Assembly: GCA_964400165.1 (NCBI GenBank)
Contig: CAYNSX010000004.1
Location: forward strand, 5,380 to 69,379
Direction: 5' to 3'
From: an uncultured bacterium
Lineage (GTDB): Bacteria; Armatimonadota; Hebobacteria; CAYNSX01
Length of the DNA stretch: 64,000 nucleotides
A model generated the notes under the pieces. That model did no database searches and had not been told where the DNA came from. It saw only the letters and a program-made list of their open reading frames with translations. This document shows positions 14,577 to 57,186 of this stretch, in pieces; position 1 is the first letter of the stretch, and the number at the start of each line of letters is the position of its first letter. Made by a program: the position numbers and the translations under genes.

Positions 14577-16160
14577 TTAGTCATTCCAATCCGGCGGCCA
14601 ATTGCCCGCCGCCTTGGCGTCGGCGCTGAAAACATCCCACTCGGCATCGGTGAAGCGCCGCACGCTCCCGTCGAGCATCGCCGCGAACACATACCCGCGC
14701 GGCCAGGCGAGGAACGCGAGCGGCACCCCCTGCGGGTTCGGCCGCCCCATCACCATCTGCCCGGGCTGAATCAAGAAACTCACCAGCGCCTCGCCCCCGG
14801 GCGCGCCGAGCGAGTCACTATTCGGCAGCAAGGAACCCACCATGCCCAGGATGCCCTCGGGAAAACTTTCCGCATTCAAGTCAGGGAACCGACTCCCCCA
14901 CACCTTGAGGACATTTTGGAGTGCCGCGGACACCTCACGCATCCGCGACTCGGCGAGTTGCAGCTTCTGCTCATCGCTCAACGGGAGCCCATAGTGCGCC
15001 CGCTCGTCGAGCGTGGCGTCATCCAGGCGAAGGTCAGCCAGCCAAATCTGCCCGCCACGGACAAAACAGACACTCAATGAATCCCCCGCCCATTCCGCTT
15101 CGAAAGACGCATCTGCCGCCACCAACAGCGTGTTGTGACTCCGTCGTTCGGGATTCAGCGCCCACAGGAGAAACAAGTTGCCCTTCCACTCATTCCGCAC
15201 CTCGTCGCGCAGCGGAATCGAAGAGCCGAAGAGCAGCAAGTCATGCTTCGCCGACCAGCCGAGAATGGGGCCCGAGTCACGGGTCACGACTTGCGACTCG
15301 CCCGAGTGCAAGTCAATGACCGACCTGAACACCGTGTCCGCGGCTTGGTCGTGTGCCAACTCGACGCGAAACCGTCCGCTCGGCGATTGCAATCGAATCG
15401 GCCATCGCGTTATGCCAACAACCATATCTCGTTCGAGCAAGACCGATTGCCCCGCTTCGAGGTCGTAATTTACCAACTTTCCTTGCCGGCGTTCACTCCC
15501 GTCGGCATCCACAACACGCTGCGACGCCAAGAATTCGATGCCGTCGCCTTCGGCGTTCCAGCGCGGGATGATTCCCTCACCCACTACGGTAACCGCTCCC
15601 GTCCTCGCGTCAGCCAGCAGGACCTGCGACGGCGTGTCGGGGCTTCGCATGGTGCCAATCAGGATTCGCGTTCCTTGCGGCTCGCAGGCGACAGTCTGTA
15701 AGCGGGCGCCGCCCAACGTGTGCGTCTGGCTCTGCCAGGTGCGCGCATCGAAGACGCGCACCTCGCGCACCTCTCCGTTCTCATTCAGCCACGGCACCAC
15801 CAGTATCGGTGCGCCCTGGCACCAACAGAGGTCGGGATTCAGCCCGCCAGCGAACATCATTTCAGCCTTTAGCAAAACCCGCGGCATCCCTCCGGATGCG
15901 GGGATGACGCTCACCCGCGGCCCCATCATCCGCACCGTGGCGCCCGTCCGGGAATCAGCAACCGGATACGACAGTTCCAGATACGCGATCCACTTCCCGT
16001 CCGGGCTGGCCGCCAGCGAATACACTTCCGCATCGTGGGTCAGTTGCCGCGAGCCGCCCGCGCGGGCGATCTGGTCACCGACGACCATGACTGGATCGGG
16101 CCGCGTAGATCCCGCCGCCGCGAGAATCATCACCCAAGGAACTAGCCAGCCGTTCGCCAT
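14577..16160 (-). CDS. periplasmic PD40/TolB-like beta-propeller protein with an unassigned C-terminal domain
   Basis: Signal peptide MANGWLVPWVMILAAAG, followed by repeated ..SPDGKWIAY.. / ..GQIWLADL..-type blades. The start is taken at M28 of the track ORF. Confidence 0.55.
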   Translation of the reverse strand: MANGWLVPWVMILAAAGSTRPDPVMVVGDQIARAGGSRQLTHDAEVYSLAASPDGKWIAYLELSYPVADSRTGATVRMMGPRVSVIPASGGMPRVLLKAEMMFAGGLNPDLCWCQGAPILVVPWLNENGEVREVRVFDARTWQSQTHTLGGARLQTVACEPQGTRILIGTMRSPDTPSQVLLADARTGAVTVVGEGIIPRWNAEGDGIEFLASQRVVDADGSERRQGKLVNYDLEAGQSVLLERDMVVGITRWPIRLQSPSGRFRVELAHDQAADTVFRSVIDLHSGESQVVTRDSGPILGWSAKHDLLLFGSSIPLRDEVRNEWKGNLFLLWALNPERRSHNTLLVAADASFEAEWAGDSLSVCFVRGGQIWLADLRLDDATLDERAHYGLPLSDEQKLQLAESRMREVSAALQNVLKVWGSRFPDLNAESFPEGILGMVGSLLPNSDSLGAPGGEALVSFLIQPGQMVMGRPNPQGVPLAFLAWPRGYVFAAMLDGSVRRFTDAEWDVFSADAKAAGNWPPDWND

Positions 16161-20307: not shown

Positions 20308-21264
20308 TTGTCGTCTGGTTTAGTGAAGGGTACAACCTCCAAGATGCCCCGACCGAAAGAACCCGCCCTGCTCATCGGCACCGACGACGGCCTGCACCAA
20401 CTGCTGCCGGAGCCGCGCGTGGTGCTGCCCGAAGAGAAAGTGACCGCCATCGCCACCAGCGGCGAAGCCGTCTGGTGCATCACCGATGAGCGCACTGTCC
20501 GCCGCCAGCGCCACGGCACCGCCTTCAAGCCCATCTTCGAACTCACCGACCGCCGCCTCACCTGCCTGGGGCTGACCAGCCACGGCGTCTTCATCGGCAC
20601 CAGCGGCGCGCACCTGCTCCGCATCAAGAACAAGAAACTGGGGATGCTGCACTCCTTCGACCGCGTCACCGGGCGCAGCGAGTGGTTCACGCCTGACGGC
20701 GACGAGGCCGACATCCGCTCCATCGCCCAGTCCGAGAGCGGCGCCGTCTTCGTCAATGTCCATGTCGGCGGCATCCCGCGCACGCTCAACGGCGGCGACA
20801 CCTGGAAGCCCACCATCGACATCGAGCAGGATGTCCATCAGGTCATCGCCCACCCGAAGAAGGAAGGGCTGCTCCTCGCCGCCGCCGCGGTCGGGCTGTG
20901 CGTCAGTGACGACGACGGCGGCACCTGGACGGTGCGCAATGACGGCTTGCACGGCGACTACTGCCGGGCGGTGGCGCTCTGCCGCGACACCGTCCTGGTC
21001 ACGGCCTCGACCGGCCCGCGCAGCCGCCGCGGCGCCGTCTACCACACCTCGCTCAACGCCGCCGACACGCTGGAGAAGTGCGAGCGCGGCCTGCCCGAGT
21101 GGTTCCCCGGCAACATCGACACCGGCTGCCTTGCCGCCCACGGTGACCGTGCCGCCTTCGGCACCAAAGAGGGCGAAGTCTATCAGTCGCTTGACGCCGG
21201 CGAGTCCTGGACGCGCATCGCCGCCGCCCTGCCCCGCGTCCGCGCCGTCTCGTTTAGCGGGTAG
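20308..21264 (+). CDS. BNR/Asp-box repeat beta-propeller protein (sialidase-like / Ycf48-like fold)
   Basis: Asp-box repeats GGDTWK, SDDDGGTWT and SLDAGESWT. The start may instead be the ATG at 20344. Confidence 0.5.
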   Translation: MSSGLVKGTTSKMPRPKEPALLIGTDDGLHQLLPEPRVVLPEEKVTAIATSGEAVWCITDERTVRRQRHGTAFKPIFELTDRRLTCLGLTSHGVFIGTSGAHLLRIKNKKLGMLHSFDRVTGRSEWFTPDGDEADIRSIAQSESGAVFVNVHVGGIPRTLNGGDTWKPTIDIEQDVHQVIAHPKKEGLLLAAAAVGLCVSDDDGGTWTVRNDGLHGDYCRAVALCRDTVLVTASTGPRSRRGAVYHTSLNAADTLEKCERGLPEWFPGNIDTGCLAAHGDRAAFGTKEGEVYQSLDAGESWTRIAAALPRVRAVSFSG

Positions 21265-21406
21265 GACGCTGGGATGAGATGCCTGCGCAACCCTCCGCGG
21301 CGTCGGTTCGTCAGGTTTGCCATTGCCTCAGTGGCTGAAAGTGAGGCCTTGGGCATGCGATTCGCTCGATTCTTATCAGTAATTCTACTGAGTTGGGGTC
21401 TGTTCA

Positions 21407-21436
21407 CTTGACAGCGTTGCGGGGCGCGGGGATGAT
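21407..21436 (+). promoter_or_regulatory. sigma70-like promoter TTGACA -N17- GATGAT at the edge of the low-GC island
   Basis: A consensus -35 hexamer with a 17-nt spacer, followed by the RBS GGGAGCGAGG and the ATG of the Cys-rich ORF. Confidence 0.4.
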
Positions 21437-21463
21437 TCGCAGCGCTTGAAGGGAGCGAGGTCA

Positions 21464-21844
21464 ATGAGACTGAGAGCGGGGTCAGCAGTTCAGGCACTTT
21501 TGATTCTGGTCTTGCTGTCGGGAAGCGCGGGACCGCTGTTCGCAGTCTGTACGGTCGACCACGGACCATGCGTCAATGATGGCACATGCGAGGTCGGGAC
21601 TCTCGAATGCCAATCATATAATGAATTGACTGGGACCAATAAAGGGGTCATCTGTATTATGTCATGGCCCTTGGAACAAATCACCCGCCACGCGGGATCC
21701 TCACCCGATTTATATTTCATGACGCGTTATTGTGTCGAACTGGGAAAATGGCCTTGGCAATGGCCTGGCTGCGCTTGCCTCGGAACTCCAGACCAAACTG
21801 AACACCAGAGTCCATATGTTAGCTGCCAGACAACATGGCCATGA
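21464..21844 (+). CDS. small secreted cysteine-rich protein (10 Cys in about 100 mature residues), no recognisable family
   Basis: Signal peptide MRLRAGSAVQALLILVLLSGSAGPLFA, then CTVDHGPCVNDGTCEVGTLECQ...CIMSW...YCVELGKWPWQWPGCACLG...CQTTWP. GC is markedly lower than in the flanks. Confidence 0.4.
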   Translation: MRLRAGSAVQALLILVLLSGSAGPLFAVCTVDHGPCVNDGTCEVGTLECQSYNELTGTNKGVICIMSWPLEQITRHAGSSPDLYFMTRYCVELGKWPWQWPGCACLGTPDQTEHQSPYVSCQTTWP

Positions 21845-21905
21845 TGGAGGAATGGCTGGTCTGCGAAGTCGGGATGACCGTCTTTGCGAATGAGGAGGAG
21901 GATCT

Positions 21906-22976
21906 GTGAACACCACACATCCGACTGCGTTTCGCGCCTTCACATTAGTCGGCTTACTCGTAGTTGGCATTCTGGGCTTCGTTCTCTGGTTGAGGTCGCC
22001 GGAACCGCAAAGGACATCAGTCGCGACTGCATCGCCGGTAGCTTCAGCGCTGACGATTGGGGCTGTCGGGGCGGATGCGAAAGCCGTAGAGCTCCTCAAT
22101 AAACTGCAGGAGCGACTCGTCTCTTTGGGGACCGTCTCGGCGATCTGGAGTGAGACTTGGGAGCAGCATCCCATTTCAGGACACAGCGCCCTTTTGGCAT
22201 TGTTGACCCGCTCTCCAAAGATACCAGTTTACGTGACGACACGCGAGTCTCGCTCTGTCTGGTTTGCCACCGACGGCACCAAGTGGCGGCTGGATTGTTC
22301 TGAAGCGGCAGAACCCGTTTATGCGGAAGGCAGCACCGGCGAACGATCTAAGGGGTCGGACGACTATTCTGTCGCGTTTGACGGACTGCTAACGACCGCT
22401 CTTTCACAGGGTGGACGGGCAATGTATATCGCTGACACATCGACTGCCCGTACCGCCGTGCCGCACAATGGCTGGGAACACACCTACCGCGCGATCCTTT
22501 TTGGGGTGCCCTATTACAACCTCGGACAAGGCAGCACTTTCGCTTATGCGGGCCGAGAGTTTTTTTCGAAGTGGTGGTGCCACCGCCTGCATGGGGAGGG
22601 CACGGTCGAAGCGCCTGCGGGTGCTAGCGGCGATTGGAGTTACGAGGTGGACCTCTGGATTACCGATGACCCGATAGGCGTGCCTGTGGGTTACGAATTC
22701 CGCGGACATCAGGGCAACGCCGGGACTAGTAAGTGGCACTGGCAGATTGACCGCTTGGAGCAGCCGGCCGCCGGTGTCTTTCTCGGCGCAGATGGGTGGA
22801 AGGCATTTTGGCCGCCGTCCTGGAAGCTGACCGAACCGGAAGCGCGGACGACCTGGACCCTGCAGCAGGCCAGTGTCGATAACTCCCCTGCAGCGGAGAC
22901 ATTCCATCTGAGTCCTCCGGTGAAATGTCTCGTCCACGATCTCGTCGCAGGGGAAACTCGGCAAACTGGCCCTTAG
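21906..22976 (+). CDS. hypothetical membrane-anchored protein (N-terminal TM helix, ~330-aa extracytoplasmic domain)
   Basis: GTG start; N-terminal AFRAFTLVGLLVVGILGFVLWL. No motif recognised. Lies inside the same low-GC island. Confidence 0.4.
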   Translation: MNTTHPTAFRAFTLVGLLVVGILGFVLWLRSPEPQRTSVATASPVASALTIGAVGADAKAVELLNKLQERLVSLGTVSAIWSETWEQHPISGHSALLALLTRSPKIPVYVTTRESRSVWFATDGTKWRLDCSEAAEPVYAEGSTGERSKGSDDYSVAFDGLLTTALSQGGRAMYIADTSTARTAVPHNGWEHTYRAILFGVPYYNLGQGSTFAYAGREFFSKWWCHRLHGEGTVEAPAGASGDWSYEVDLWITDDPIGVPVGYEFRGHQGNAGTSKWHWQIDRLEQPAAGVFLGADGWKAFWPPSWKLTEPEARTTWTLQQASVDNSPAAETFHLSPPVKCLVHDLVAGETRQTGP

Positions 22977-23103
22977 CCACAAGTCCGAGCGAATGATACG
23001 AGAAGGTCGCAACTTTTAGCGCCGCGCCGCCGCTTCCGCCTGCGCGTCCCCCTCACTCCCGCTTCCTCCTTCGCCCTATGGGCTACGAAGGACAAGTCGC
23101 GTA

Positions 23104-23235
23104 CCCCTCGCCAATGTCAGGGAGAGGGGATTACAAGCACCGTGGGGCGCTGGCTGTGCCTCTCCTCTTCAGGGAGAGGGTGTCCACCGAAGCCTGATGT
23201 TTGGGCGAAGGAGGGCGGGAGAGGGACTTTACACC
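23104..23235. repeat. family-B hairpin units abutting the mrp stop codon
   Basis: CCTCGCCaatgtcaGGGAGAGGGGA, CCTCTCCtcttcaGGGAGAGGG and GGGAGAGGGACTTTACACC. The last unit matches GGGAGAGGGACTTcgcg at about 17951. Confidence 0.4.
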
Positions 23236-24377
23236 TTCGCCGCGGCTTCCGCCTGCGCGTCCTTGATGGCCTGGCGCAATTCGTCGCGCGTCTGCTGAAC
23301 CGCCGGGGCGTCGGCGCCGCGCAGCGTCTGCACGCTGATACGCGCCGCCACCAATTCCGCCACCGCCCGGAACGCCTGCGCCGCCGGCCGGTCCGGGTGC
23401 GCCAGCACATAGGGCACGCCGGCGTCGCTCGAACGCACGATCTCCGGATCGAGCGGCAGCGTCCCCAGGAACGGCACGCCCAACTGCTCCGCCGCGGCGC
23501 GCCCGCCCCCGCGCACGCCGAAGATTTCATGTTCAGCCCCGCAACTCGGGCAGATGAAGGTGCTCATATTCTCGACGATGCCGAGGATGGGCGCCTCAAG
23601 CTTCTGGAACATTTTCAGCGCCTTGGCAGCGATGGTGCGCGCCAAGTCTTGCGCGGTCATCACGATGACGACGCCGCTCAACGGAATCAGTTGCGCCAGC
23701 GTTAGTTGCGCGTCGCCGGTGCCGGGCGGCAGGTCGAGCACCAGGTAATCGAGTTCGCCCCACTCGACATCGCCGAGCATCTGCGACACCGCCTTGTGCA
23801 CCATCGGCCCGCGCCAGATGACCGGCCGGTCATCATCGCCGAGCAGGAAGCCGAGCGACATCACCTTCATCCCGTGCGCGTCGAGCGGCAGGATCTTGTT
23901 GTTGTCGCCCCAGACCGGGTGTTCATGTACCCCCGCCAGCGTCGGCAGCGAGGGGCCGTAGATGTCGAGGTCGAGCAACCCGACGCGGGCGCCGCGCTGG
24001 CTCAACGACACCGCCAGGTTCACCGCCACTGTGGACTTCCCGACGCCGCCCTTGCCCGAGGCCACCGCCACCGTGTTGCGCACGCCGGGGATGAGTGTTT
24101 CGCCCCCCTGCTGGCCGACCGGCACCTGCGCCGTCATCTTCACTTCGACCGCGCCGACGCCCGGCACCAGCCGCCGGATGGCGTCCGCCGCCACTTCCTG
24201 AAACTGGTCCTTGATCGGGCAGGCGGGCGTGGTCAATTCGAAAGTGAAGGCGACATCGGCGCCCGCAATGCGCAAGTCCTTGATCATCCCGAGCGTGACG
24301 ATGTCCTTGCCCAGGTCGGGGTCAATGACGGTGCGCAGCGCGTCGAGCACCTGCTCTTCGGTGACTTTCGGGGCCAC
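23229..24377 (-). CDS. apbC: Mrp/ApbC/NBP35 Fe-S cluster carrier ATPase with N-terminal MIP18 (DUF59) domain
   Basis: ..VLDALRTVIDPDLGKDIVTLGMIKDL.. (DUF59) followed by ..VAVASGKGGVGKSTVAVNLAVSLS.. (deviant Walker A) and the CxxC region ..FICPSCGAEHEIFG... Confidence 0.85.
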   Translation of the reverse strand: MAPKVTEEQVLDALRTVIDPDLGKDIVTLGMIKDLRIAGADVAFTFELTTPACPIKDQFQEVAADAIRRLVPGVGAVEVKMTAQVPVGQQGGETLIPGVRNTVAVASGKGGVGKSTVAVNLAVSLSQRGARVGLLDLDIYGPSLPTLAGVHEHPVWGDNNKILPLDAHGMKVMSLGFLLGDDDRPVIWRGPMVHKAVSQMLGDVEWGELDYLVLDLPPGTGDAQLTLAQLIPLSGVVIVMTAQDLARTIAAKALKMFQKLEAPILGIVENMSTFICPSCGAEHEIFGVRGGGRAAAEQLGVPFLGTLPLDPEIVRSSDAGVPYVLAHPDRPAAQAFRAVAELVAARISVQTLRGADAPAVQQTRDELRQAIKDAQAEAAAKV

Positions 24378-24774: not shown

Positions 24775-25141
24775 TGGGTCGCCTCCTACTGATAGGGTAA
24801 TGGTGCTGGGAAGAGAGGAAAAAAGGACAGGCGTAACCGATGCTACTTGGGTCGAGAAAAGCCAATCTCCGACTGCTCCGGCGCAGGCAAAACTGCCTGC
24901 AGGCACGCTCGCAATAGAGCGATTCTACTAAGAAAGGCAGTCCCGGGGATTCCGCGCTCTTCTGAAAACGGCTGAATGTGACCGATCACTTCGCTGTCGG
25001 TCAGGTGCTCTGCTGCAAGTTCCAAGATTCAGTTGAAATCATAAAGCGTCACCGGCATCGCAACCATCGCGGTGTTCGCGGAAAGTATGGCTGCCCAAGT
25101 TTCATATAGGGCCTCGGCCGCGAAATAGAGTTCTGTGACGC

Positions 25142-25399
25142 TCAATGCTTCACTACATTCTCAAATCGGCTGGGAACGAGCACCACGATCTGAAGACCGT
25201 CGCGCCACGGATACACTTCAATCCGTCGGCCGCAGGTCGGACAAACGAACTGGTCGCCGCGGGTGCCGCGCTGCGAAAAGAGCATCGGCGATGCCGGATG
25301 CCCCGCCGCGCAGTGAGGAACGGTCTGTGGGTCACGGACGGCCATTCGCATCCGCATTATCCCACAAACCCCGCTTCGCATCCCGCGCCGCGCGTTCAA
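25142..25399 (-). CDS. possible small zinc-ribbon protein (HC...CPTC); uncertain
   Basis: ..VPHCAAGHPASPMLFSQRGTRGDQFVCPTCGRRIEVYPW.. The ORF lies in a lower-GC stretch and its start is ambiguous (several in-frame Met). Confidence 0.2.
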   Translation of the reverse strand: MNARRGMRSGVCGIMRMRMAVRDPQTVPHCAAGHPASPMLFSQRGTRGDQFVCPTCGRRIEVYPWRDGLQIVVLVPSRFENVVKH

Positions 25400-25983: not shown

Positions 25984-26823
25984 GTGCGGCAGCGACACGC
26001 CTACCGTTGGTGGCACGCGTGCCTGTGGCTGGCCGTGTGCCTGATTGTCGGCCCAATGGATGCCTCGGCGGCCGATTCGGCGCTCGCGCCTGCGGGCGGG
26101 CGCATCGCCCCCGCCATCCCGCTGACCCTGGTCGCCGACGGCGACCGGCGGGAGATCCTGGCGCCGCCGACGACAGTCGGCGACGCCCTGGCCTTCGCCG
26201 GCGTCTCGCTCGGCGAGAACGACCGGGTGGCGCCATCCCCGCGGCAGCGGGTGTCGCCGAACCTGACGATCACCGTCACCCGCGTCAAGATTGTCGAGCA
26301 AACGGAGCCCATCGACCTGCCGCCGCCGATCCTGTTCCTCGAAGATGCCGCTCTGCGCAGCGGCCAGCGGGCCGTCCGGCAGACCGGCCAGGCCGGCAAA
26401 GCCGAGCGCACCCGCGTCACCTACTTGCGCGACGGCGTCGTGACACTGGAAAAGACCACCGCACCGCGGACCATCGAGCAGCCCGTCCCCGAAATCGTCG
26501 CCGTCTGGCCGGGCGCCGTCCCGGCCGGCGGGCTGGCGGCCCGCACGATGGTGGCGACGGCGTATGAGCCCGGGCCGCGCAGTTGTGGCCGCTCCGCCGA
26601 CGGCATTACCGCCACCGGCGTCCCGGCACGCCGCGGCGTCATCGCGGTGGACCCGCGGGTCATCCCGCTCGGTTCAAAAGTGTATGTCGAGGGCTACGGC
26701 TTTGCGCTGGCGGCGGATGTCGGTGGCGCCATCAAGGGCAACAAGATCGACCTGTGCTACGCGACGGTCAGTGAGTGTCTGCAGTTCGGCCGCCGCAAAG
26801 TGCTGGTGTGGCTGCTGGACTAG
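25984..26823 (+). CDS. 3D-domain protein (YuiC/YabE/MltA-like) with DUF348/G5-like N-terminal region
   Basis: C-terminus ..GITATGVPARRGVIAVDPRVIPLGSKVYVEGYGFALAADVGGAIKGNKIDLCYATVSEC.. is the 3D domain. The start is placed at an in-frame GTG and is uncertain. Confidence 0.55.
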   Translation: MRQRHAYRWWHACLWLAVCLIVGPMDASAADSALAPAGGRIAPAIPLTLVADGDRREILAPPTTVGDALAFAGVSLGENDRVAPSPRQRVSPNLTITVTRVKIVEQTEPIDLPPPILFLEDAALRSGQRAVRQTGQAGKAERTRVTYLRDGVVTLEKTTAPRTIEQPVPEIVAVWPGAVPAGGLAARTMVATAYEPGPRSCGRSADGITATGVPARRGVIAVDPRVIPLGSKVYVEGYGFALAADVGGAIKGNKIDLCYATVSECLQFGRRKVLVWLLD

Positions 26824-29068: not shown

Positions 29069-29352
29069 TCTCCTGCTTTCGCGGGCCATCCTACGCTGCC
29101 CGCCAGGGAGGGTCAATCAGCCCGCCCGCCCTCGATGTTCCACAGCCCGACAGGCCTTGGACGGCGGCGGGAGGCGTAAAGTTCGGCGACACGGAGGAGC
29201 GCATCGTCAGCAAAGCCAGCGCGGAATTACCGCATCCGTAAGAACCCAATGGTACCGTTTGCCGCAATCCCCGTCACCGCAAATTGGGTTCGTTTCGCAA
29301 TTTTGGTTTTCCCTGGCATGCCTGGGGATGAACAGAGGGCAGGGAGAAACGG

Positions 29353-30411
29353 TTAACCGGGCGCGCGGGCCGGGCGGGCCTCCGCAATCTGCCGGCCATC
29401 CGTGCGCTTCAGCGCGACGGGCTGGCCGGTCGCTTCGGCGAGCAACTGCAGCGGCACGGTGATGCCGTAGTCATAGTGCCGCGCCGGCGAGGGGAGCTTC
29501 ACCTGCCGCCCAGCGACGCTCGCCGTTCGCGTCCCGAACGCCACCGTCACCGCGCGCCCGCCGACGGTGAACTGCACTTCCTTCGCGCTCGCCTTCACGA
29601 CCTTGCCGCCGAGCAGCGCCAGCGCCTGGTCGAGCGCGACTTCGCTCTGCCCTGCGTTGACGCGATGCGCAATCGGCCGCTGTTTTGTTCCCGACACCAG
29701 ATTGCCCGGATCGATGCGCTTGCCCCACAACAAATACCCCTCGATGCGCATATCGAGCGTGTAAATCATCTGCTCTACGAGCGACCGCTCTTCCGGGCGA
29801 AGCGGTACCGTCACGGCGTCGAAGTCCCATCGCTTTCCGCTCAAAGTCCAAACACTCACGAAGATCGGACCTCGGGTGAAATAGACGCGGTAGTAGAAAT
29901 CCTCTCGGTCATTCACTTCACCAACCGACCAGTCGCCCAGGTGTCCTGCAGGGCCTGGCGAGGGCAAGGTGCGAATGTCGAACGAAACACTCGCGACAAA
30001 GAGGCCAGCCGTCTTAGATGCTTCTAACCCCTTCGGCTCTGTCGTCCATTCCATTCCGAAACCAATCTTGCGAGTGCCCAGCGGCGCGGTGGGATCAGAA
30101 TCTTCTCTGAAGAACGACTGCCCGGCGGCCGCTATGATCGGCAGTCCCACATCGTCAGTGTGCATCCTTCTCCAGTCCTCGTATTCTGCAAATGACGGAC
30201 GCGGCGGCGGGATGTGATGCCACCGGGGCAAACCGGATTCCAGTTTCCAGCCCACTGGACCTTCCGAGTCCGCGAAACGAATAGCGTCAAACCATACAGT
30301 CGGTACGGCGCGCACTTCTTGCGACCAGCTCGGCGCCAGGCACACTGGCAAGAAAAGAGTAACCGCGGTAAGCGCCATCCAACGGCGGGCGAACCAGCGA
30401 GTGCTGTTCAT
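29353..30411 (-). CDS. secreted hypothetical protein with C-terminal copper-amine-oxidase-N-terminal-like (stalk) domain
   Basis: Signal peptide. The C-terminal ..KEVQFTVGGRAVTVAFGTRTASVAGRQVKLPSPARHYDYGITVPLQLLAEATG.. resembles the Cu_amine_oxidN1 domain. GC is lower than in the flanks. Confidence 0.4.
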   Translation of the reverse strand: MNSTRWFARRWMALTAVTLFLPVCLAPSWSQEVRAVPTVWFDAIRFADSEGPVGWKLESGLPRWHHIPPPRPSFAEYEDWRRMHTDDVGLPIIAAAGQSFFREDSDPTAPLGTRKIGFGMEWTTEPKGLEASKTAGLFVASVSFDIRTLPSPGPAGHLGDWSVGEVNDREDFYYRVYFTRGPIFVSVWTLSGKRWDFDAVTVPLRPEERSLVEQMIYTLDMRIEGYLLWGKRIDPGNLVSGTKQRPIAHRVNAGQSEVALDQALALLGGKVVKASAKEVQFTVGGRAVTVAFGTRTASVAGRQVKLPSPARHYDYGITVPLQLLAEATGQPVALKRTDGRQIAEARPARAPG

Positions 30412-30413
30412 CT

Positions 30414-31718
30414 TCAGTCCACCACCTTTGGGACATAGCCCCGGAGCACCTCGAGATCGCTCGCAGGATAGCCCTGCACCAGCGCTGCTCGATACAGATT
30501 CCAGGCGACCTTCAATACATTAGAACCAGGAGGACAGTTCACCCTCGAACAGGCATCCCACGCGTATTCTGCCGTGCTTCCTCCGGGGGATGCCATGATG
30601 GCATGATAGTTCCAACTCCAGGTCTGACAGCCATACCTGAGCCCAGTCACATCGATGGGCCATGTACAGAACTGCTTGAAGGGTTGCGACGGGTCACAGT
30701 CAGGTGAAACCGCCGTTGGAACGATCGTTTTCGAATCTCTCGAGGTGACGCCGACTGCCCGACACAAGAGCACTAACAGGTCGTTAACATCATTGCACTG
30801 TCCGTTTACGCGGACGTTCATGTGCGCGCTCTCCGCGACATACAGTTGTGCGTTGAACTCTGGCGGATCTGCCCAATAGTTCGAGTAGAAGTATGCATCG
30901 CCGTCGGCTCGCTGTTGCGGGAAGGGAGGCAAGGGATAATTGAATAGAAACATTTCCACCCATAAGGTCAAACCAGCCGCCACCGAGTCGTTTGTGTTAG
31001 ACATTATCGCGTGCCGACAGGCGTAGTCGAGGAGCGTTTGCCACGGCAGCGCACCCCAGGCCTCGCCGCTCTCAATCCATTGCGGCGCCTCAAGCAAGCG
31101 ATAGATCCGCACGGGGGCTATACCGACTGCCACATCATTGTTCCCAAACTCCCAGTGACTCTCCGTGTCAGTCTTCGTCATGACCATATTCAATTCATAC
31201 CCGATGTCATCCGGCAGCGGTCCCACCTCGAACTCAATGAGATGAATCGTTGGATTCGCGCCCCCGAACTTCAACAGCCATGACGCTTCTTCGGGATCCT
31301 CGCCGCTCCCAACATACACTGGTATGACGCGGTCGAATTCATCGCTGGCCTCTATGGTGAGAATGGTTTTCGTGATGATGGTGCACGAATACAGCACCAT
31401 CGTCACATGCAGCGTGCTTCCCATCAGAACTGCTGTCGGATCCCGGTGCGGATTCGGTCCGCCCCCGACGCTGCATCCATACGGCGCTCCGTCCCACATC
31501 CACCCCGCCGGGTCGGTGGCATGCGGTATCGCAACTTCGTTCAGCCAGATCGCGTATTCTGGCGCGCCGCTGACCTTCAGACTTCGGACGAACAGTTCAC
31601 CATCTTCGCCCTGTTGCTGCGCGTCCACAGGCGCGGACTGCAGCGAAAGCAGCCCACCGAGAATCAGGAGAGCCAGGAGGCCTGGCCTGGCCTTGCCTTG
31701 CCTTGCCTTGCCGCTCAC
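30414..31718 (-). CDS. secreted transglutaminase-like (papain-fold Cys/His/Asp) domain protein
   Basis: GTG start preceded by GGAGGG; signal peptide VSGKARQGKARPGLLALLILGGLLSLQSAPVDA. Core ..GQCNDVNDLLVLLCRAVGVTSRD....WNYHAIM....AWDAC.. resembles the transglutaminase-like C/H/D triad. Lies in the low-GC region. Confidence 0.4.
   Translation of the reverse strand: MSGKARQGKARPGLLALLILGGLLSLQSAPVDAQQQGEDGELFVRSLKVSGAPEYAIWLNEVAIPHATDPAGWMWDGAPYGCSVGGGPNPHRDPTAVLMGSTLHVTMVLYSCTIITKTILTIEASDEFDRVIPVYVGSGEDPEEASWLLKFGGANPTIHLIEFEVGPLPDDIGYELNMVMTKTDTESHWEFGNNDVAVGIAPVRIYRLLEAPQWIESGEAWGALPWQTLLDYACRHAIMSNTNDSVAAGLTLWVEMFLFNYPLPPFPQQRADGDAYFYSNYWADPPEFNAQLYVAESAHMNVRVNGQCNDVNDLLVLLCRAVGVTSRDSKTIVPTAVSPDCDPSQPFKQFCTWPIDVTGLRYGCQTWSWNYHAIMASPGGSTAEYAWDACSRVNCPPGSNVLKVAWNLYRAALVQGYPASDLEVLRGYVPKVVD
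31691..31710. repeat. (CCTTG)4 = (GGCAA)4 pentanucleotide tract inside the first codons of the transglutaminase-like gene
   Basis: On the coding strand GTG AGC GGCAAGGCAAGGCAAGGCAAGG CC encodes the n-region SGKARQGKAR of the signal peptide. Gain or loss of one unit shifts the frame. Confidence 0.6.
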
Positions 31719-31854
31719 CCTTCTTCCCTCCGAATTGATTCTACCCCCGCGATGCAAGAGTTGTGCACTGCTGACAACCGCCTGCTTGCCTGCCACGCCT
31801 TCCGCCGATGCAGTCCTTTCGCCCTGGCGATAAGATGCCATCACACAGGACTCT

Positions 31855-34454: not shown

Positions 34455-35671
34455 GTGAGCCCGCCCGCGCCGAACTCGACCAATTGAGCCAGGCCTGCAT
34501 CCACTGCGGGCTGTGCTTGGAGGCGTGCCCGACCTACCGCGTCCTGGGCTCGGAGATGGACTCGCCGCGCGGGCGCATTTATCTGATGCGCGCCGTCCTG
34601 CATGACGAATTGCAGCCGACCGCGACGGTGCAGAAACACCTCGACCGTTGCGTCGGCTGCCGGGCGTGCGAACCGGCGTGTCCGTCGGGGATGCAATACG
34701 GGCGATTGCTCGAGGGGTTCCGCGCCGCGGTGTCGGAACCGGCGCGACCGCGCGGCTGGCGGCGGACAGTGGTGCGCGCGCTGATTCGGACGGTGCTGCC
34801 GCACCCCGCCCGCTTGCGCCGGGCGCTGGCGTGGGGCGCGTTCGCTCGCGCGATCGCGCGCCTGTTCAAGCGCCGCGGGCCGCTGCCGCTGGCGCTTGAT
34901 TCGCTGCCGCAGCCGCAGGCGCGACTGCCGCTGCCGGAGACGACATACGCGGGAGGCGCGCGCGGGCGCGTCGGGTTCTTGCGCGGCTGCGCGATGTCCG
35001 TGCTGTTCCCGGCCGTGAATGCCGATACCGTGCGCGTCCTCGCCGCGGCGGGCTACGCGGTCGTGACGCCGCCGCAGCAGGGCTGCTGCGGCGCGCTGGC
35101 CGCGCATGACGGCGATCACGCGGGCGCGGCGCAGTTCGCGCGGGCGCTGATCGCGGCGTTCCCGACCGACTTGGAATGCATCGTGACGAACTCCGCCGGC
35201 TGCGGCGCCGCTATGAAACAATACGGCCACCTGCTCGGCGATGAGGACGGCGCCCGGTTCGCCGCCACGGTGCGCGATGTCAGCGAAGTGCTGGTCGATA
35301 CTCCGTTGCCGCTCGTCGAGCGGAAACAGCGCGTCGCCTACTACGACCCCTGCCACCTGAAGAACGGCCAGGGCATCACAAAGCAACCGCGGGCGCTGCT
35401 GCGAGCGGCGCCGGGCGTGGAATTGGTCGAACTCGGCGCGCTCGGCTGCTGCGGCGGCGCCGGCGCCTACTTCCTGACGCAGCCCGGACTCTCGCAATCG
35501 CTGCTCGATGCGCTGATGGACTGCGTCGCCGAGGCGAAGCCCGATGTTGTCGTCACCGGCAACCCGTCGTGCCTGCTGCAGTTGCAGAAAGGGGTGGCCC
35601 AGCGCGGCCTGACCATCCCCGTCCAGCACCTCGCCGAGTTCCTGGCTGAATCGCTTTCGACAGACCCTTGA
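34451..35671 (+). CDS. glcF: glycolate oxidase iron-sulfur subunit GlcF
   Basis: MSEPARAELDQLSQACIHCGLCLEACPTYRV..LDRCVGCRACEPACPSG.. (2x 4Fe-4S) plus two CCG domains. ATGA overlap with the glcE stop. Confidence 0.8.
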   Translation: MSEPARAELDQLSQACIHCGLCLEACPTYRVLGSEMDSPRGRIYLMRAVLHDELQPTATVQKHLDRCVGCRACEPACPSGMQYGRLLEGFRAAVSEPARPRGWRRTVVRALIRTVLPHPARLRRALAWGAFARAIARLFKRRGPLPLALDSLPQPQARLPLPETTYAGGARGRVGFLRGCAMSVLFPAVNADTVRVLAAAGYAVVTPPQQGCCGALAAHDGDHAGAAQFARALIAAFPTDLECIVTNSAGCGAAMKQYGHLLGDEDGARFAATVRDVSEVLVDTPLPLVERKQRVAYYDPCHLKNGQGITKQPRALLRAAPGVELVELGALGCCGGAGAYFLTQPGLSQSLLDALMDCVAEAKPDVVVTGNPSCLLQLQKGVAQRGLTIPVQHLAEFLAESLSTDP

Positions 35672-35759
35672 CAGGACATCCACAGGATTGGCATACTAAT
35701 AAAACAAAAGTTTGAATATCGAGACGCATGGAAAGTCTGTACAGTCCGAAGGGAAAGCC

Positions 35760-36701
35760 ATGAGTCGAGAAAAGAACGGCAGAGTTAACAAAGGGCGACG
35801 CGAACGCAGCAGATACCTCTCCCCAATCTATCTGGATGGCATCCTAACAGTCAGAGAGCAGCTTGCGCTCTATGGCTACAAGGTCATCCAACGGAAGACA
35901 CGGGGACGAAAATTCATCGCATTTGGATGGTACGGTGGCAAGTTTTCTCATCTCGATTGGCTCCTGCCGCTGCTGCCCTCGTGTCACCACTACTGCGAAC
36001 CTTTTGGCGGCTCTGCTGCGGTTCTGTTGAATCGGCCCCCTTGTCCCGTGGAAACATACAACGATATTGACGGAGAGGTAGTGAATTTCTTCCGAATCCT
36101 TCGCAGCCGACCAGAGCGACTACTCAAGGAGATTGCGCTCACACCCTTTTCCCGGGAAGAGTTCTTCTTTGCCTGCACAACCAATGGTCAGCGCATAACT
36201 GACCTTGAGCGTGCAAGGAGATTCTTCGTTCGCGCACGACAGGTAAGAACGGGACTTGCGCAGAGTGCAAGCCTTGGTCGTTGGGCAAACTGCAAGAACA
36301 CCACCCGTTCGGGAATGTCTGGCGTCGTGTCACGATGGCTTGGGAGCGTTGACACTCTGCCATCGGTCGCAGAGAGATTGCTGCGAGTGCAAATCGAGAA
36401 CCGCCCAGCTGCCGATCTCGTCAAGCTGTACGATGACAAGGGGACTCTTTTCTACTGTGACCCACCCTATCCCCACGAGGCACGCGGAGATGACAAGGCG
36501 TATGGCGCAGAGATGACAGACGAAGAGCATGCAGAGCTGTCAGAACTCTTGGTGCGCGCAAGAGGCAAGGTGGCTGTCTCGGGCTACCGTTGCAAGCTTA
36601 TGGACAAGCTATACAAGGGATTCCGTCGTATCGATGCTCCAACAAAGCTCTGCCATTCAACCAAGGGACCACGCACCGAATCCCTCTGGATCAACTACTG
36701 A
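35760..36701 (+). CDS. Dam-family (alpha-class, D12) N6-adenine DNA methyltransferase
   Basis: Motif X FGWYGGK, motif I EPFGGSAAVLL and motif IV YCDPPY occur in the Dam order. GC is about 50%, far below the flanks. Confidence 0.7.
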   Translation: MSREKNGRVNKGRRERSRYLSPIYLDGILTVREQLALYGYKVIQRKTRGRKFIAFGWYGGKFSHLDWLLPLLPSCHHYCEPFGGSAAVLLNRPPCPVETYNDIDGEVVNFFRILRSRPERLLKEIALTPFSREEFFFACTTNGQRITDLERARRFFVRARQVRTGLAQSASLGRWANCKNTTRSGMSGVVSRWLGSVDTLPSVAERLLRVQIENRPAADLVKLYDDKGTLFYCDPPYPHEARGDDKAYGAEMTDEEHAELSELLVRARGKVAVSGYRCKLMDKLYKGFRRIDAPTKLCHSTKGPRTESLWINY

Positions 36702-36719
36702 GTTACGACAAGTCCGCGA

Positions 36720-37805
36720 ATGCCTGATCTGAATCTCGAAGCCGCGCGTGAAGTACTTGAGCGCCTCTTCACCGAAGTGGAGGGCGAACTGCTTGAGGGC
36801 ACCGTTCCCTCAGTCGACCCGCGATTCAACGATGCGATCTCACATGTGTTCAGATCCTCCACTCAATCATACAGAGAGATCCTCCTTGGCTGCATCCTGG
36901 CCCGTCTCCAGGACAAGAGCATCGACATTCACCTCCCCTATGTTGGCCTAGGAGAGAATTCATACCACGGCAGAAAACTGGATGAAGACGTGGTGAATCC
37001 ATTCCTGCACGCTCACCAAATCCCAAGCACGCGGGGTGCCTTTCTAGCGGTCTTCCGCAGGTCGGTCAGTTTCGTCCCCGAGACTCGGGAGGGACTGAAA
37101 GATACAGCCGGATATGATTCCCTGCTCATCCTAATCGACTACCTTGCTCAAGAAGTGGACGATGGAGCGATAGAAAGTTTTCTAAAAGTGCTGTTGGCAA
37201 AGTTGGTCGAAGTTCGTGAGGGTGCACGTATTGAGCTAATCAATCTGCAACGACTGAGCGCGGATCAATATGGCGCATTGATTGACGGGCTCCTGGCAAG
37301 ACAGAGTGGGGGGAGATTTCCAGTCATGCTGGTCGCGGCTGCTTTCGAGGCGCTCCGCGAGAGATTCCACTTGCCCTGGGAGATACAGACACAAGGGATC
37401 AATGTAGCGGACCTTCCATCGAAGTTCGGTGGAGACATCGTAATCCTGGAAGGTGACAGGACAGTTTTGGCCGCAGAGGTCACCGAACGACGGATCGACA
37501 AAGAGCGAGTCGTGGCCACGTTTCAGGCCAAAATTGGCCCACAAGGGATTGATGACTACTTGTTCTTTGTCACTGCGGACGTGGATGAGTCAGTGATGCG
37601 CCAATCCAGGCAGTACTTCACCCAAGGTCATGAAGTGAGCTTTGTGCTCATAAAGGGTTGGATTCTCGCAATTTTGCTGACGATCGGCCCTGACGGTCGA
37701 AGGGCCTTCAACAATGCATTGTTGGAACGGTTGTCAGACTCAACGGTACCCTCTTCGCTGAAGGCCATTTGGAACGAACTGATGGTCGTGCTTACAGAAG
37801 TTTGA
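36720..37805 (+). CDS. hypothetical 361-aa protein immediately downstream of the methyltransferase; putative restriction endonuclease partner
   Basis: No recognised motif; the call rests only on adjacency and co-orientation with the Dam-like MTase and the shared low GC. A possible PD-(D/E)xK-like stretch ..GGDIVILEGDRTVLAAEVTERRIDKER.. is not convincing. Confidence 0.3.
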   Translation: MPDLNLEAAREVLERLFTEVEGELLEGTVPSVDPRFNDAISHVFRSSTQSYREILLGCILARLQDKSIDIHLPYVGLGENSYHGRKLDEDVVNPFLHAHQIPSTRGAFLAVFRRSVSFVPETREGLKDTAGYDSLLILIDYLAQEVDDGAIESFLKVLLAKLVEVREGARIELINLQRLSADQYGALIDGLLARQSGGRFPVMLVAAAFEALRERFHLPWEIQTQGINVADLPSKFGGDIVILEGDRTVLAAEVTERRIDKERVVATFQAKIGPQGIDDYLFFVTADVDESVMRQSRQYFTQGHEVSFVLIKGWILAILLTIGPDGRRAFNNALLERLSDSTVPSSLKAIWNELMVVLTEV

Positions 37806-37810
37806 CCTCT

Positions 37811-38572
37811 TCAGCTCCTTGACTTCAGCGCCTCTTTCAACAACTCCACCGTCGCGGCGACATCGGTCTCGATGTAGCGCTCGCCGCGGGCGCGGTCGCC
37901 GAGCGTCGGGTCGCCGACGACCCCGTTGCCGGTGACCTGCTTCCAGGTCTTGCTCTTGAAGTCTTCCCGCGCCTCGCGGTAGTCGCCGGTGAAGCCGGGC
38001 GCGGCCTTGTCCATCTGCACCAGGCCGCTGTGGAGCGCCAGCATGATCGAGGTCTCGACCTCGCCGGCGTGGGCGCCGGCGGCGCCGGTGCCGATGCCGT
38101 CCTTGGCGGCCACCTGATAGAAGCGGTCGAAAGCGGTATCGAGGTCAATCAGGTAGTGCACGCGCGCCGGCGCCACCGTCCGGCGCAAGTCGGCGAGCAT
38201 CGCTTCGAGCGGCGGGAAGTTGCCGCCGTGCGTCGGCAGCAGGACCAGGTCGGTGAGGCCATGCTGCGCCAGGGTGCGGCAATAATCGGTGACGACGGCC
38301 TGCAGCGTTTCGCGGCGCAGCGAGATGGTGCCGGGGAACTCCATGTGGTGGTCGCTGCAGCCGGCGGCGATGCACGGGGCGACGAACGCCTGGCCCAGCG
38401 CCCGCGCCACCCGCTCGCCGAGCGCCCGGCCGTAGGCGCTGTCGGTCATGGTCGGCAGGTGGGGGCCGTGCTGCTCGTTCGAGCCGACGGGGATCAGGCA
38501 GGTGGTCCAGCCGACGGCAATGCGGGCGGCGATTTCGGGCGAAGTCAGATGTTCCAGCGCGACGGTCTCCAC
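37811..38572 (-). CDS. creatininase / creatinine amidohydrolase family protein
   Basis: ..IPVGSNEQHGPHLP..D....HGGN.. metal-binding pattern of the creatininase fold. The start is taken at the GTG of VETVALEH (M/V45 of the track ORF). Confidence 0.6.
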   Translation of the reverse strand: METVALEHLTSPEIAARIAVGWTTCLIPVGSNEQHGPHLPTMTDSAYGRALGERVARALGQAFVAPCIAAGCSDHHMEFPGTISLRRETLQAVVTDYCRTLAQHGLTDLVLLPTHGGNFPPLEAMLADLRRTVAPARVHYLIDLDTAFDRFYQVAAKDGIGTGAAGAHAGEVETSIMLALHSGLVQMDKAAPGFTGDYREAREDFKSKTWKQVTGNGVVGDPTLGDRARGERYIETDVAATVELLKEALKSRS

Positions 38573-52705: not shown

Positions 52706-55700
52706 TCAGAGGGGCAGTTGCGCCGCCCGCGTAATGAAAACTGCCATTTGGGCGCGGGTAACGATGTTCGCCGGCTTATATGTGCCGTCCGGGAATCCGG
52801 CTGTAATGCCCTTGCTGACGATGTATTCGATGAACTTGTAGGACGGGTGCGCGCACGAGACATCCGAGAAGCGCTCGCTGCCGCACGCTGGGGGAGTGAA
52901 AGCAGCAAGGTCGAGGTCGGCCAGGTCGCGCACGCGCGCAAGGAACACTGCCATCGCGCCGCGGCTGACGAAGTTGCCCGGTTTGTAGGTGCCATCCGGA
53001 AAGCCCGCGGCAATCCCCTTGCTGACAATGTACTCGATGAATTTGTAGGACGGGTGAGTGCACGAGAGATCGGAGAAGGTCTCACTGGCGCACGCTGGCG
53101 GCGCGAAAGAAGCGAAGTCGCCAAGCGTCAAATTTGCTGCCCGCGCCATGAAGACCGCCATCGCGCTGCGACTGACCATGCTGTCGGGGTGAAAGGAGCC
53201 GTCAGGGAACCCAGAAGCGATGGCGGCACGCGATACGGCTTCAATGAATTGGAATGCCCAGTAGCCGCAGGGGACATCGGAGAAGGAGTCGGCAGTTTGC
53301 TTCACAGCGTAGGAGACCGTGTCTTCCGAGGTCAGGCCACCCCAATCGGTGACGCGCAGCCGCACCGTGGTGACGCCAAGCGGCAACTCTATGACCTTGC
53401 GCTCGCCTTGCTCGTCAACGGTACCATCGTTTCCGAAATCCCACTCGAAGAAGGCAATGTTGTCGTTCGTGTGGGGCAGCGAGTCGAAGTCGGACGACCG
53501 CGTCCCATCGAGGAGTATTGTGCCAGCGGTCGCCTGGCAGCCGACGACGGTCGTCACATCGGGGCCGGCATCCGCTATCGGCTGCCGGTTCCCGCCCACC
53601 GCGACGAAGACCTCGCGTTGCAGCGCAGAATCGCGACCGAATCCGTTCGACACAGTGATCAGGGCCTCGCCGGAGTCAACAGCGGTGACAAGGCCGTCCG
53701 AAGTCACGGTGGCCACGGTCGGATCGGAAGTGGCAAACGACGTGCCGGTCGTCGTATCTGTCAGGTCGCGCCATAGCTGATCATTGAAGAGGCCCGTCAC
53801 TTGGAGCGGTTGGCTCTCTCCCATGTTTGCAAAGCGGATCGCGTCGGGCTGCACGACCAGATCAGCAAGGATCGCGTTTGGCATAGCGGTGACTGTGACC
53901 GCGGGGGAAGTGACCAGCGAACCATCTGCCAGCTGCCCCGCGGCCGAGATGGTGATGGGGCCGGAAGCGTTCGCCGATACCTGGTATGAAACAGTCCACG
54001 GGCTGCTCCCGGCCGGGTCGAGGACGACCGTGTCGTCGACTCCGAGCACGACCAGGCTTTGAGGCGCGATCCCATTGTCAGCGACGACCGTTACACTCAC
54101 GCTGCTGCCGCTTTCGACTTGCGTCCCCCCCAATGGGGCCGTGATATGCAATTGCCCATGCGAGGAGGGCCGCAACCTCGACGTGCCGGACACTGCACGC
54201 GGGGCCGCGCTCAACCTGGATAGGGCTGATGGTGCTGGTGGGAATGCGAAGGTCGCGGTATAGCTCGGGGTGTTGAGCAGCGCAAGAACGCGATCCCGGT
54301 ACACCGGGCTCGTTGTGTTCGCGGGGTGATTGAAGTCGCAGCCCTGAAACACATCGTACGCTCCGGACGGAAGCCCTCCCCGCTGGCTGTATGCGGACAC
54401 GATCCCATCGCTCGATGCACCTGAGAACACCGTATCCCATACCCCACACGCCGTATCCACGCCGCCGGCAGCGCATAGTGACCAGGTCTTAATGGCAAAG
54501 GAAAAGAAAACCCTCGCGTCAATGGAAAGACAGAACAACGCTTCACAGCCAAATCCGGCGTGCCCAATGAGCGCGTGAGTGGGGATTCCAGTCGCGCCCA
54601 TGTCCAAAATAGCCCGATTGCCAGGGACAAGGTCGTTCACTGCGCCCTGGTCGATTGGCAATCCTGCCTGGGCCATCAGCCAAGTCAGATATTCGCCGCA
54701 TAGCAAATGATTATCACGCATGTCGACGAGAGCGAGGGCGAGTCCTGACCCGAAGTGAGGGGTGTCAAGCGTAATGAGCTTGTGAACATCGCCCTGCATG
54801 AGGTTATCTCGGCGCCGGTATTCGGGCTGGTTGAAATACACCCGCGTCAGGACGCCGCCCATACTGTGTCCCACAATATCGGCGCCCATGACAGCGACTC
54901 CCGGGCGCCGCAGCTTGAACAGCGCAATTGCTTGAGCCACCGCGGTTCTCGGGACCAGAGCATTGGCAGCGAAGGAGAGCGCACTGCCTCGAGTGGAGGG
55001 ATCGTTGTCGGAATCCCCGTCGTAGTCCGCGATCCACATCACGAATCGGGAATCTTGTATGAATGATGTAAAGAACGGTGCCTGACCTTGAGACCAAGTG
55101 TCCGCGTTGGACCAGACACCATGGAGCAGTACCACCGGAGGGCGGTGAATTTCGATGGATGTGTCCGGAAGCGTTTGTGCAGAGCCTCCCGCCGGATAGA
55201 AAGTCGCGTGCAACACGACACTGCGGGTGGCGCGAAATGCGTCGCCGGGCGCGCTCATGCGCACGAAGTCGGCCGGCGCCCGGTAATAGGCAAAGGCGAA
55301 TTTCCCCCGCGAGGTGTTCACCACCGGCACTGTCAGCGCCAGTCGTGGGTCGGAGCGATTGGCGAAGTACAGGCCGCCGCCCTCGTTAGTGTTCGCCTCA
55401 TTCTGGACTGCAAAAGCCACCGTCCCGTCGGCGGTAGCCGGCAAGCGCAAGAGCACTGTCGCTTGACCGTCCGCCGCGACGCCACGTCGCGGGCCGCCGC
55501 CGACGGCTAACACCTCGGCGGCAGTGACGGTATTGCCGGTGCTGCCAACGAACTCCGGCCAGGCGTCGAGCCGCTGGACGGGTCCGCGAACTGCGCGATT
55601 CGGACCGGTCGTGAATGCTACCGTGGCGTAGTTGGAATAGCCGACCGGGTAGTCGTAGTACAAGGCAGTGCCCGTCACGAACACGGTCGCCCCATCGGGG

Positions 55701-57064: not shown

Positions 57065-57186
57065 GGCTTCAGCCCCCTTGTGGCAAGCCAACATGCCAAT
57101 GCCCTGACTTCGTGCGCGGCGCCTCAATCCCTGCCACCCTGCCCCTGCCCTGCGTAGCCCGGAGGGCGAAGCAGGGTCCCTGGTCC

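Follow-up and report, generated by a model that had tools for sequence, protein, structure and literature searches.

A low-GC two-gene islet between the BNR-repeat and Mrp/ApbC genes of an Armatimonadota contig, probably acquired and predicted to encode an extracytoplasmic protein pair

The sequence analysed is a 64,000-nt stretch of DNA from an uncultured bacterium (GTDB lineage Bacteria; Armatimonadota; Hebobacteria; CAYNSX01), which corresponds to forward-strand positions 5,380 to 69,379 of contig CAYNSX010000004.1 in assembly GCA_964400165.1. The whole stretch, with an overall GC content of 66%, is referred to below as the window. Between a gene for a BNR/Asp-box repeat protein and a convergent gene for an Mrp/ApbC-type ATPase, it holds a 1,966-bp insert (21264-23229) that is missing from related contigs. 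The larger part of the insert is a low-GC cargo with two genes, orfA and orfB, whose products are predicted to be a small exported protein rich in cysteine and a larger one anchored in the membrane. The interpretation favoured here, with moderate confidence, is that of an acquired islet located in a hot spot and encoding a pair of proteins that would reside outside the cytoplasm. The features of the locus are the following, where L081, L082, and L083 denote contigs from other assemblies and P0002 a protein, all described below.

20344-21264, plus strand: left flanking core gene, BNR/Asp-box repeat (Ycf48-like beta-propeller) protein, 306 amino acids (aa); weak Pfam/NCBIfam BNR matches; GC fraction at third codon positions (GC3) 0.91
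21265-23015, no strand: cargo cassette, 1,751 bp, 57% GC; from blastn against L083, composition, and L082
21408-21436, plus strand: sigma-70-like promoter site TTGACA-17-GATGAT, putative; consensus scan, 10/12 matches
21464-21844, plus strand: orfA, 126-aa precursor with predicted Sec-type signal peptide and 9 Cys; from the list of open reading frames (ORFs), Cys positions, hydropathy, and the L081 homologue
21906-22976, plus strand: orfB, 356 aa, GTG start; from the ORF list, homologue P0002, and hydropathy
23016-23049, minus strand: relic of the Mrp/ApbC 3' end (DAQAEAAARR-stop); from a direct repeat and sequence reading
23050-23228, no strand: GC-rich imperfect palindrome, 179 nt; inverted repeat I1, absent from L083
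23229-24377, minus strand: right flanking core gene, Mrp/ApbC-type Fe-S cluster carrier ATPase, 382 aa, convergent with orfB; Pfam ParA/NUBPL (8.5e-100) and FeS_assembly_P

The site without the insert is found in three identical contigs (L083, L084, and L085, one of them 386 kb long and belonging to ERZ27248239), which were reached via the BNR protein. They are collinear with the window over positions 10118-38439 (approximately 28 kb) at 80-91.5% DNA identity, and the two flanking proteins are 93% (BNR, orthologue P0003) and 95.8% (Mrp/ApbC) identical to their L083 counterparts. According to blastn, positions 10920 and 10929 of L083 correspond to positions 21263 and 23230 of the window, with 8 unaligned bases in the former against 1,966 bp in the latter. 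The left edge of the insertion is the TAG stop codon of the BNR gene (21262-21264), the L083 alignment ending at 21263. With only about 6 nt between the convergent BNR and Mrp/ApbC stop codons, L083 represents the empty site. The insert is composite and consists of the cargo, the Mrp 3'-end relic, and the 179-nt palindrome. A preliminary description of this DNA had placed a low-GC island at 21270-22990; the island indeed lies there, but the inserted DNA, when measured against the empty site, is larger and extends over 21264-23229.

In two further relatives the same slot is filled with other genes. L087, which is 94.7% identical to the window, carries there an unrelated gene, for a secreted protein about 293 aa in length, and L086 (89.5% identical) a gene for a DUF4190 membrane protein. 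Positions 1960-2282 of L086 (minus strand), reading ...ERLYCFWDRYGLHFRTKTRDQSDHAYDYLSALLTMETERNF..., resemble the N-terminus of an IS701-type transposase and may derive from one, and they abut or truncate the DUF4190 gene; this stretch could instead be an assembly chimera, the contig being only 2.3 kb long. Altogether, four states of the BNR-Mrp slot were observed: orfA with orfB, the gene for the protein of about 293 aa, the DUF4190 gene with the IS701-like fragment, and the empty one. The unrelated fillings in L086 and L087, together with the empty site in L083, thus mark the slot as a hypervariable hot spot, and unrelated alternative inserts at one position are also the pattern of replacement-type islands. 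Similarity between the left junction of the window cargo and those of the L087 and L086 cargos is at chance level. A set of 80 GTDB loci reached via Mrp is uninformative for the empty site, with a best identity of 54% and no neighbour in common.

The islet itself was recovered a second time, in the same context, from an independent metagenome contig of the Joint Genome Institute (JGI), L082. The two copies are 99.85% identical across the islet and 99.88% identical over window positions 21011-23463 (2,453 bp). Only 3 differences were found (22602, 22779, and 22958), all of them in orfB and two of them non-synonymous (T to A and F to L). The clustering of these single-nucleotide polymorphisms (SNPs) in orfB is not significant (Fisher p = 0.08) and at most suggestive of faster orfB change.

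Base composition sets the cargo apart from its surroundings. In 400-nt windows the GC fraction is 0.512-0.585 across 21400-22600 and 0.65-0.70 on either side, and the islet is one of 4 low-GC stretches in the window. The cargo (21265-23015) has 57.3% GC, versus 68.3±2.7% in equal-sized core windows (z = −4.05). Relative to a core set of 19 genes picked by their orthologues in L083, for which GC3 equals 0.869±0.034, the values of orfA (0.52, z = −10.3) and orfB (0.636, z = −6.9) are low, and the tetranucleotide distance between cargo and core reaches z = +8 relative to core windows. The k-mer composition of the cargo is nearer than that of the core to L081, a contig carrying a homologous pair that matches its own neighbours in composition; a donor of approximately 57-60% GC is plausible from these values. 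The drop in GC noted earlier by eye is therefore significant in terms of GC, GC3, and tetranucleotides, the k-mer signature appears foreign, and the genes lack syntenic conservation, L083 being empty and L086 and L087 holding different cargo; neither of the two outcomes named as refuting the preliminary description was thus obtained. Atypical composition and sporadic distribution at the same site are both properties of genomic islets.

Presence and absence alone give no polarity, and the islet is stable in two independent samples of the species, both of which would suit an alternative in which the genes are ancestral and were precisely deleted in the relatives. This explanation is considered very improbable. 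In GC3 the two genes fall 7-10 standard deviations short of the core genes, and the cargo has a foreign k-mer signature. Moreover, three separate losses would have to be assumed, one of which left a clean spacer of about 6 nt while the other two put unrelated genes in place of the pair, and among 1.84 billion representative proteins only one homologue from another lineage was found, on a compositionally different contig. Because of the foreign composition and the three different fillings, it appears far more likely that the islet was gained horizontally than that it was present ancestrally and lost. As for the route, the simplest possibility would be an exchange by homologous recombination within the core genes on either side.

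The right-hand part of the insert seems to have a history of its own. The functional end of the Mrp gene (DAQAEAAAKV-stop) begins at 23229, and a 25-nt direct repeat (23025-23049 and 23238-23262, 96% identical) links it to the relic; this repeat, the only significant direct one, brackets the palindrome, not the cargo. Ancestrally, the Mrp stop codon was probably located in the relic, which probably also forms the right-hand limit of the cargo. The palindrome has 24-nt terminal inverted arms (23053-23076 and 23203-23226), contains two copies of TCAGGGAGAGGG, and folds as RNA with z = −2.3. In L087 (2310-2379) an equivalent relic (DAQAELAGKS-stop) is followed by the same left arm, with a score of 52 compared with a shuffle maximum of 31. 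Since the palindrome is common to the window and L087, is absent in L083, and lies beside different cargos, it appears to be older than these cargos and to represent a separate event. As judged from these alignments, it entered the Mrp 3' end, with some 34 nt being duplicated, in the ancestor from which both the window and L087 descend, and the cargos changed afterwards.

This order of events bears on the possibility that the cargo was mobilised by the palindrome or targeted to it, the palindrome being an integron attC-like unit or a landing pad. In agreement with this idea, the window and L087 have the palindrome with a cargo beside it and L083, which has no palindrome, is empty; in addition, the element is flanked by the duplicated Mrp 3' end of about 34 nt. 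Nevertheless, such a role is judged unlikely. The association is based on n = 3, and the palindromes of the window and L087 are orthologues (94% identical and inserted at the same point) beside different cargos, which suggests that the element predates these cargos and did not travel with them. Neither an integron integrase nor a recombinase is present in the 28-kb collinear region, so that the unit does not qualify as an integron cassette. Neither a hairpin of this kind nor a common boundary sequence is present at the three other window-specific islets, and no further copy of the palindrome was detected in the window or in the fetched loci. A palindrome accompanied by a 34-nt duplication through which the end of Mrp/ApbC is rebuilt is an unexplained type of insertion, which may be related to the hot spot.

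Evidence that the two ORFs are real comes from homologues. An exhaustive phmmer search with OrfB over the 1.84 billion representative proteins returned two matches only, P0001 and P0002. The former is a 99% identical OrfB fragment on L082, and the latter is a 362-aa full-length homologue (41% identity, E = 1e-74) on L081, a 2.65-kb ENA metagenomic contig with about 60% GC; the exact 356-aa product of orfB is also the NCBI-derived entry P0123. L081 holds the same adjacent pair, the gene for an OrfA homologue (146 aa, 36% identical) being located 73 nt upstream of the orfB homologue, and the co-occurrence in homologues that the preliminary description had proposed to check is thus found there. 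All 9 cysteines are kept in the same order, C-x6/7-C-x5-C-x6/8-C-x14/11-C-x25-C-x12/16-C-x-C-x15-C, where the first of two values refers to OrfA and the second to the L081 homologue. Columns of invariant Cys, Trp, Gly, and Pro are also seen in the homologue alignments; at the DNA level, L081 and the window are not similar. In L081 the pair is preceded by a GerE-type regulator, of which no remnant was found in the window islet; the unit common to both loci is orfA plus orfB only. Since a homologous adjacent pair with conserved cysteines exists in L081, both ORFs are genuine genes that are under purifying selection and conserved as neighbours.

L081 also contains a perfect palindrome at 440-461 (GTGTCACA-N6-TGTGACAC), in the interval that separates the GerE/LuxR-type regulator gene from the orfA homologue. 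The palindrome is likely an operator for regulated expression of the pair, the window copy having a constitutive-looking promoter instead.

The opposite explanation, that the ORFs are spurious and belong to an AT-richer non-coding spacer, would account for several observations: orfA shows no frame signal in GC by codon position (0.53/0.53/0.52), OrfA is missing from a 15-billion-protein collection, and the JGI gene caller failed on both genes of L082, where orfA was missed (a 24-aa ORF being called instead) and orfB was started only at Met173 (184 aa). It is given almost no credence, since it is refuted by homologues conserved in the same order without DNA similarity, by the invariant columns, and by strong Shine-Dalgarno sites. 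These are AGGGAG, 8 nt upstream of the orfA ATG (21464), which agrees with the good ribosome-binding site reported previously, and GAGGAGGAGGA, 4-5 nt upstream of the orfB GTG (21906). Low-GC islets in high-GC genomes are under-called by gene callers and, with orfA missed and orfB truncated in this way, cargo of this kind would be under-represented in protein databases.

Word-index searches of 5.8 billion protein clusters with OrfA and OrfB returned nothing, nor did profile scans of metagenome and viral contigs for both families, and no orfA or orfB paralogues are present elsewhere in the window. No match was obtained by tblastn of OrfA and OrfB against PLSDB plasmids and INPHARED phages, which leaves a plasmid or phage origin without support. 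A similarity of the pair to the light and heavy subunits of methylamine dehydrogenase, of which the small one is Cys-rich and the large one beta-rich, was considered and rejected, as there is no Pfam match and no cofactor-maturation genes are present.

OrfA was originally described as a secreted 126-aa protein with 10 cysteines; its size and predicted export signal are retained here, but the number of cysteines is 9 (positions 29, 36, 42, 49, 64, 90, 103, 105, and 121). At the core Cys frequency of 1.29%, 9 cysteines in the 99 residues of the mature protein have P = 6e-6. According to heuristic sequence reading and hydropathy, which underlie all signal-peptide and anchor calls in this work, the N-terminus has an n-h-c layout (MRLRAG, h region, LFA/VC) with probable cleavage after residue 27. 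The predicted mature protein has 99 aa, a mass of 11 kDa, an isoelectric point (pI) of 4.7, and a net charge of −6. A lipobox of the form [LVI][ASTVI][GAS]C is not present, the sequence being L-F-A-V-C with Val at −1, nor is one conserved: in the L081 homologue, whose signal ends in ...GALA/PTPPPPP, the first Cys lies 14 residues past the ALA cleavage motif. A PDB profile match of OrfA to bradavidin-2 (E = 0.034) was discarded because it spans the signal peptide and aligns no cysteines.

As for OrfB, the preliminary description of a 356-aa protein with one N-terminal hydrophobic segment and no family match is fully supported. The protein is predicted to consist of an N-terminal signal-anchor (residues ~8-30) followed by an ectodomain of 327 aa, which is rich in Trp and Gly and has a beta-rich appearance. 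In both the window and L081 proteins, as read from sequence, the h-region has 22-25 residues and is not followed by a small-x-small cleavage site, which fits an uncleaved type II anchor. The predicted ectodomains have a pI of 5.4-5.6. Two cysteines are conserved, C225 (in WCHRLH) and C341, and the invariant motifs are ETWxQHP, GSTGxR, QGGxAMxIA, LFGxPYYNL, WxCHRLHxEG, VPVGYEFR, KAFWP, TTWxLQ, and a C-terminal TGP. No match to PDB profiles was obtained for OrfB. By eye, the ectodomain resembles the periplasmic beta-barrel proteins LolA, LolB, and RseB in that an amphipathic helix is followed by strands. It also shares with Escherichia coli LolA a 'DG.kW.L' motif and the ending 'F.L.PP....V.D', and this C-terminal stretch is the one picked by hhalign. 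None of the hhalign scores is significant (LolA, E = 0.11 with probability 0.6%; LolB, E = 0.35; RseB, E = 0.65, the RseB and LolB queries being provisional sequences), and the Pfam LolA-like families do not match OrfB even at E <= 10; the resemblance is a lead only.

The near-consensus promoter mentioned in the preliminary description is present (10/12) and well placed, 28 nt ahead of the ATG of orfA, with the transcription start expected about 20 nt before the ATG; it may function as such. From this sigma-70-like promoter and the strong Shine-Dalgarno sites, orfA and orfB would be co-transcribed. OrfA would be exported via Sec and its signal peptide removed, after which the acidic 11-kDa domain would fold outside the cytoplasm, presumably with four disulfides and one spare cysteine. 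OrfB would remain tethered by its uncleaved anchor with the 327-aa domain in the same compartment. OrfA, OrfB, and both L081 homologues each have one hydrophobic segment, N-terminal in every case, and the two products should therefore share the extracytoplasmic compartment. As they are inherited only as a pair, they probably act together. The two proteins may thus form a binary envelope module, in which OrfA would be a secreted ligand or effector and OrfB its membrane-tethered binding partner.

A different function was suggested in the preliminary description, namely a toxin/immunity or bacteriocin-like pair, where OrfA would be a toxin that is secreted via Sec and harms competitors, and OrfB a membrane-tethered immunity protein that binds or neutralises it on the outside of the producing cell's membrane. 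Several properties point in this direction. The unit is mobile, patchy, and two-gene with a promoter-like site of its own, and it combines a small protein, predicted to be exported and disulfide-rich, with a subsequent anchored one predicted to face the same side; another islet of the window encodes a conflict system (type II restriction-modification, R-M). All 3 SNPs fall in orfB and two are non-synonymous, though with the Fisher p of 0.08 given above. Anchored periplasmic immunity proteins are a known architecture (PMC4661593). This function is nevertheless doubtful. By heuristic reading the export signal and the partner in the same location are there, but homology to bacteriocin, immunity, toxin, or defence models is not: neither OrfA and OrfB nor their homologues match PADLOC at E <= 1, and Pfam, NCBIfam, PHROGs, and PDB contribute no family. 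OrfA is acidic (pI 4.7) and not a cationic membrane-active peptide, OrfB is three times its size, the other cargos of the hot spot are single envelope proteins, and the L081 pair adjoins a GerE-type regulator, not export or processing genes.

A broader conjecture, to be taken as tentative, is that the pair represents a very rare new family of binary extracytoplasmic modules. In its most interesting form, such a module would combine a Sec-dependent disulfide-knotted toxin or a phage/predator decoy with a large tethered binder, and might move as a minimal two-gene unit between distantly related high-GC bacteria and land in stop-to-stop slots without a recombinase of its own.

Several results weigh against the favoured interpretation of an acquired islet with an extracytoplasmic protein pair. 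Promoter-like sites are not significant by count (1 in 2.8 kb versus 0.5±0.7 expected). Single-sequence AlphaFold2 models are unusable, with a predicted local distance difference test score (pLDDT) of 40 for OrfA and 35 for OrfB, and no family was found for either protein in Pfam (mature domains to E <= 10), NCBIfam, PHROGs, or PDB. The pair is known from two lineages, so that co-inheritance has n = 2. The outward side may be the periplasm, the cell wall, or the medium, depending on the envelope of the host. Finally, no integrase, transposase, tRNA gene, or bracketing repeat accompanies the cargo among its neighbours in the 28-kb collinear region. An Rfam search of the islet (E <= 1) and of the whole window reported only a tRNA-Leu at 4260, 17 kb off, and the integrase or tRNA gene envisaged in the preliminary description is thus not found near the islet. 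Mobility signatures are often absent from islets, and their absence does not exclude membership.

Three other regions of the window have the character of window-specific inserts. The second islet (35650-37822, 2,173 bp versus 47 nt in L083) has 53% GC and carries the genes of the type II R-M system, one for a D12/Dam-type N6-adenine methyltransferase and one for a restriction endonuclease that is SacI-like; a promoter-like site TTGACA...CATACT is located near 35668. The third (29188-31854, 2,667 bp versus 73 nt) has 59.5% GC and two minus-strand genes, whose products have 352 aa with a Cu_amine_oxidN1 'stalk' domain and 486 aa with a weak match to the transglutaminase core. The fourth (24787-25361, 575 bp versus 62 nt, 56.5% GC) contains no convincing gene and sits between a thiamine-binding-protein-like gene and an SNase-like gene. 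No boundary repeats or hairpins common to the four islets were found. A minus-strand gene at 14580-16088 is 43% identical to its L083 counterpart, compared with 79-96% for its neighbours, and has the lowest GC3 of the core genes (0.765), which suggests that it was either replaced or is fast-evolving. Elsewhere, 52706-58273 encodes a 1,855-aa protein with an SLH-like C-terminus, 29353-30411 the Cu_amine_oxidN1 domain, and 25984-26817 a DUF348-G5-3D protein. These features hint at a host resembling Bacillota or Armatimonadota, whereas the best matches of Mrp pointed to Planctomycetota.

In comparison with known systems, the locus corresponds to islets in the sense of short laterally acquired regions (PMC4887561). 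The nearest analogue described is the lmo0443-lmo0449 hot spot of Listeria monocytogenes, which may be occupied by SSI-1, by SSI-2 with its two genes, or by an insert of one gene (PMC5541211). Both loci have a short insert (<10 kb) between core genes and mutually exclusive unrelated inserts, and the cargo described here is, like SSI-2, a self-contained two-gene unit; atypical composition and the lack of mobility genes are further points in common. In contrast to Listeria, the cargo is unrelated, the slot is a gap of about 6 nt between convergent stop codons, and the empty state was seen.

The second model is that of replacement and additive flexible genomic islands in Alteromonas, where replacement islands encode exposed structures (PMC4898812). 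Wholly different genes likewise occupy one position according to lineage in the BNR-Mrp slot, and all three cargos encode proteins that are exported or membrane-bound, by prediction for the present pair, which fits the replacement-island pattern (PMC4898812). Classical replacement islands, however, are large polysaccharide or glycosylation clusters and classical additive ones lie at tRNA or integron sites, whereas the islet has 1-2 genes without a tRNA or recombinase.

With respect to the products, colicin M-type bacteriocins have an immunity protein that is periplasmic and anchored in the inner membrane (PMC4661593). The predicted arrangement of OrfA and OrfB is alike in that one product acts outside the cytoplasm and a membrane-tethered partner faces the same compartment. 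Unlike the colicins, the pair has no sequence similarity to them, and OrfA would be a small Sec-exported disulfide-rich protein and not a modular colicin. OrfB, moreover, greatly exceeds the known anchored immunity proteins in size. Set against these systems, the islet is an example of textbook flexible-genome turnover, and its cargo is a new and very rare protein pair: a two-protein family with a 9-Cys, probably exported protein and an apparently anchored 327-aa ectodomain, whose pairing makes a direct interaction testable.

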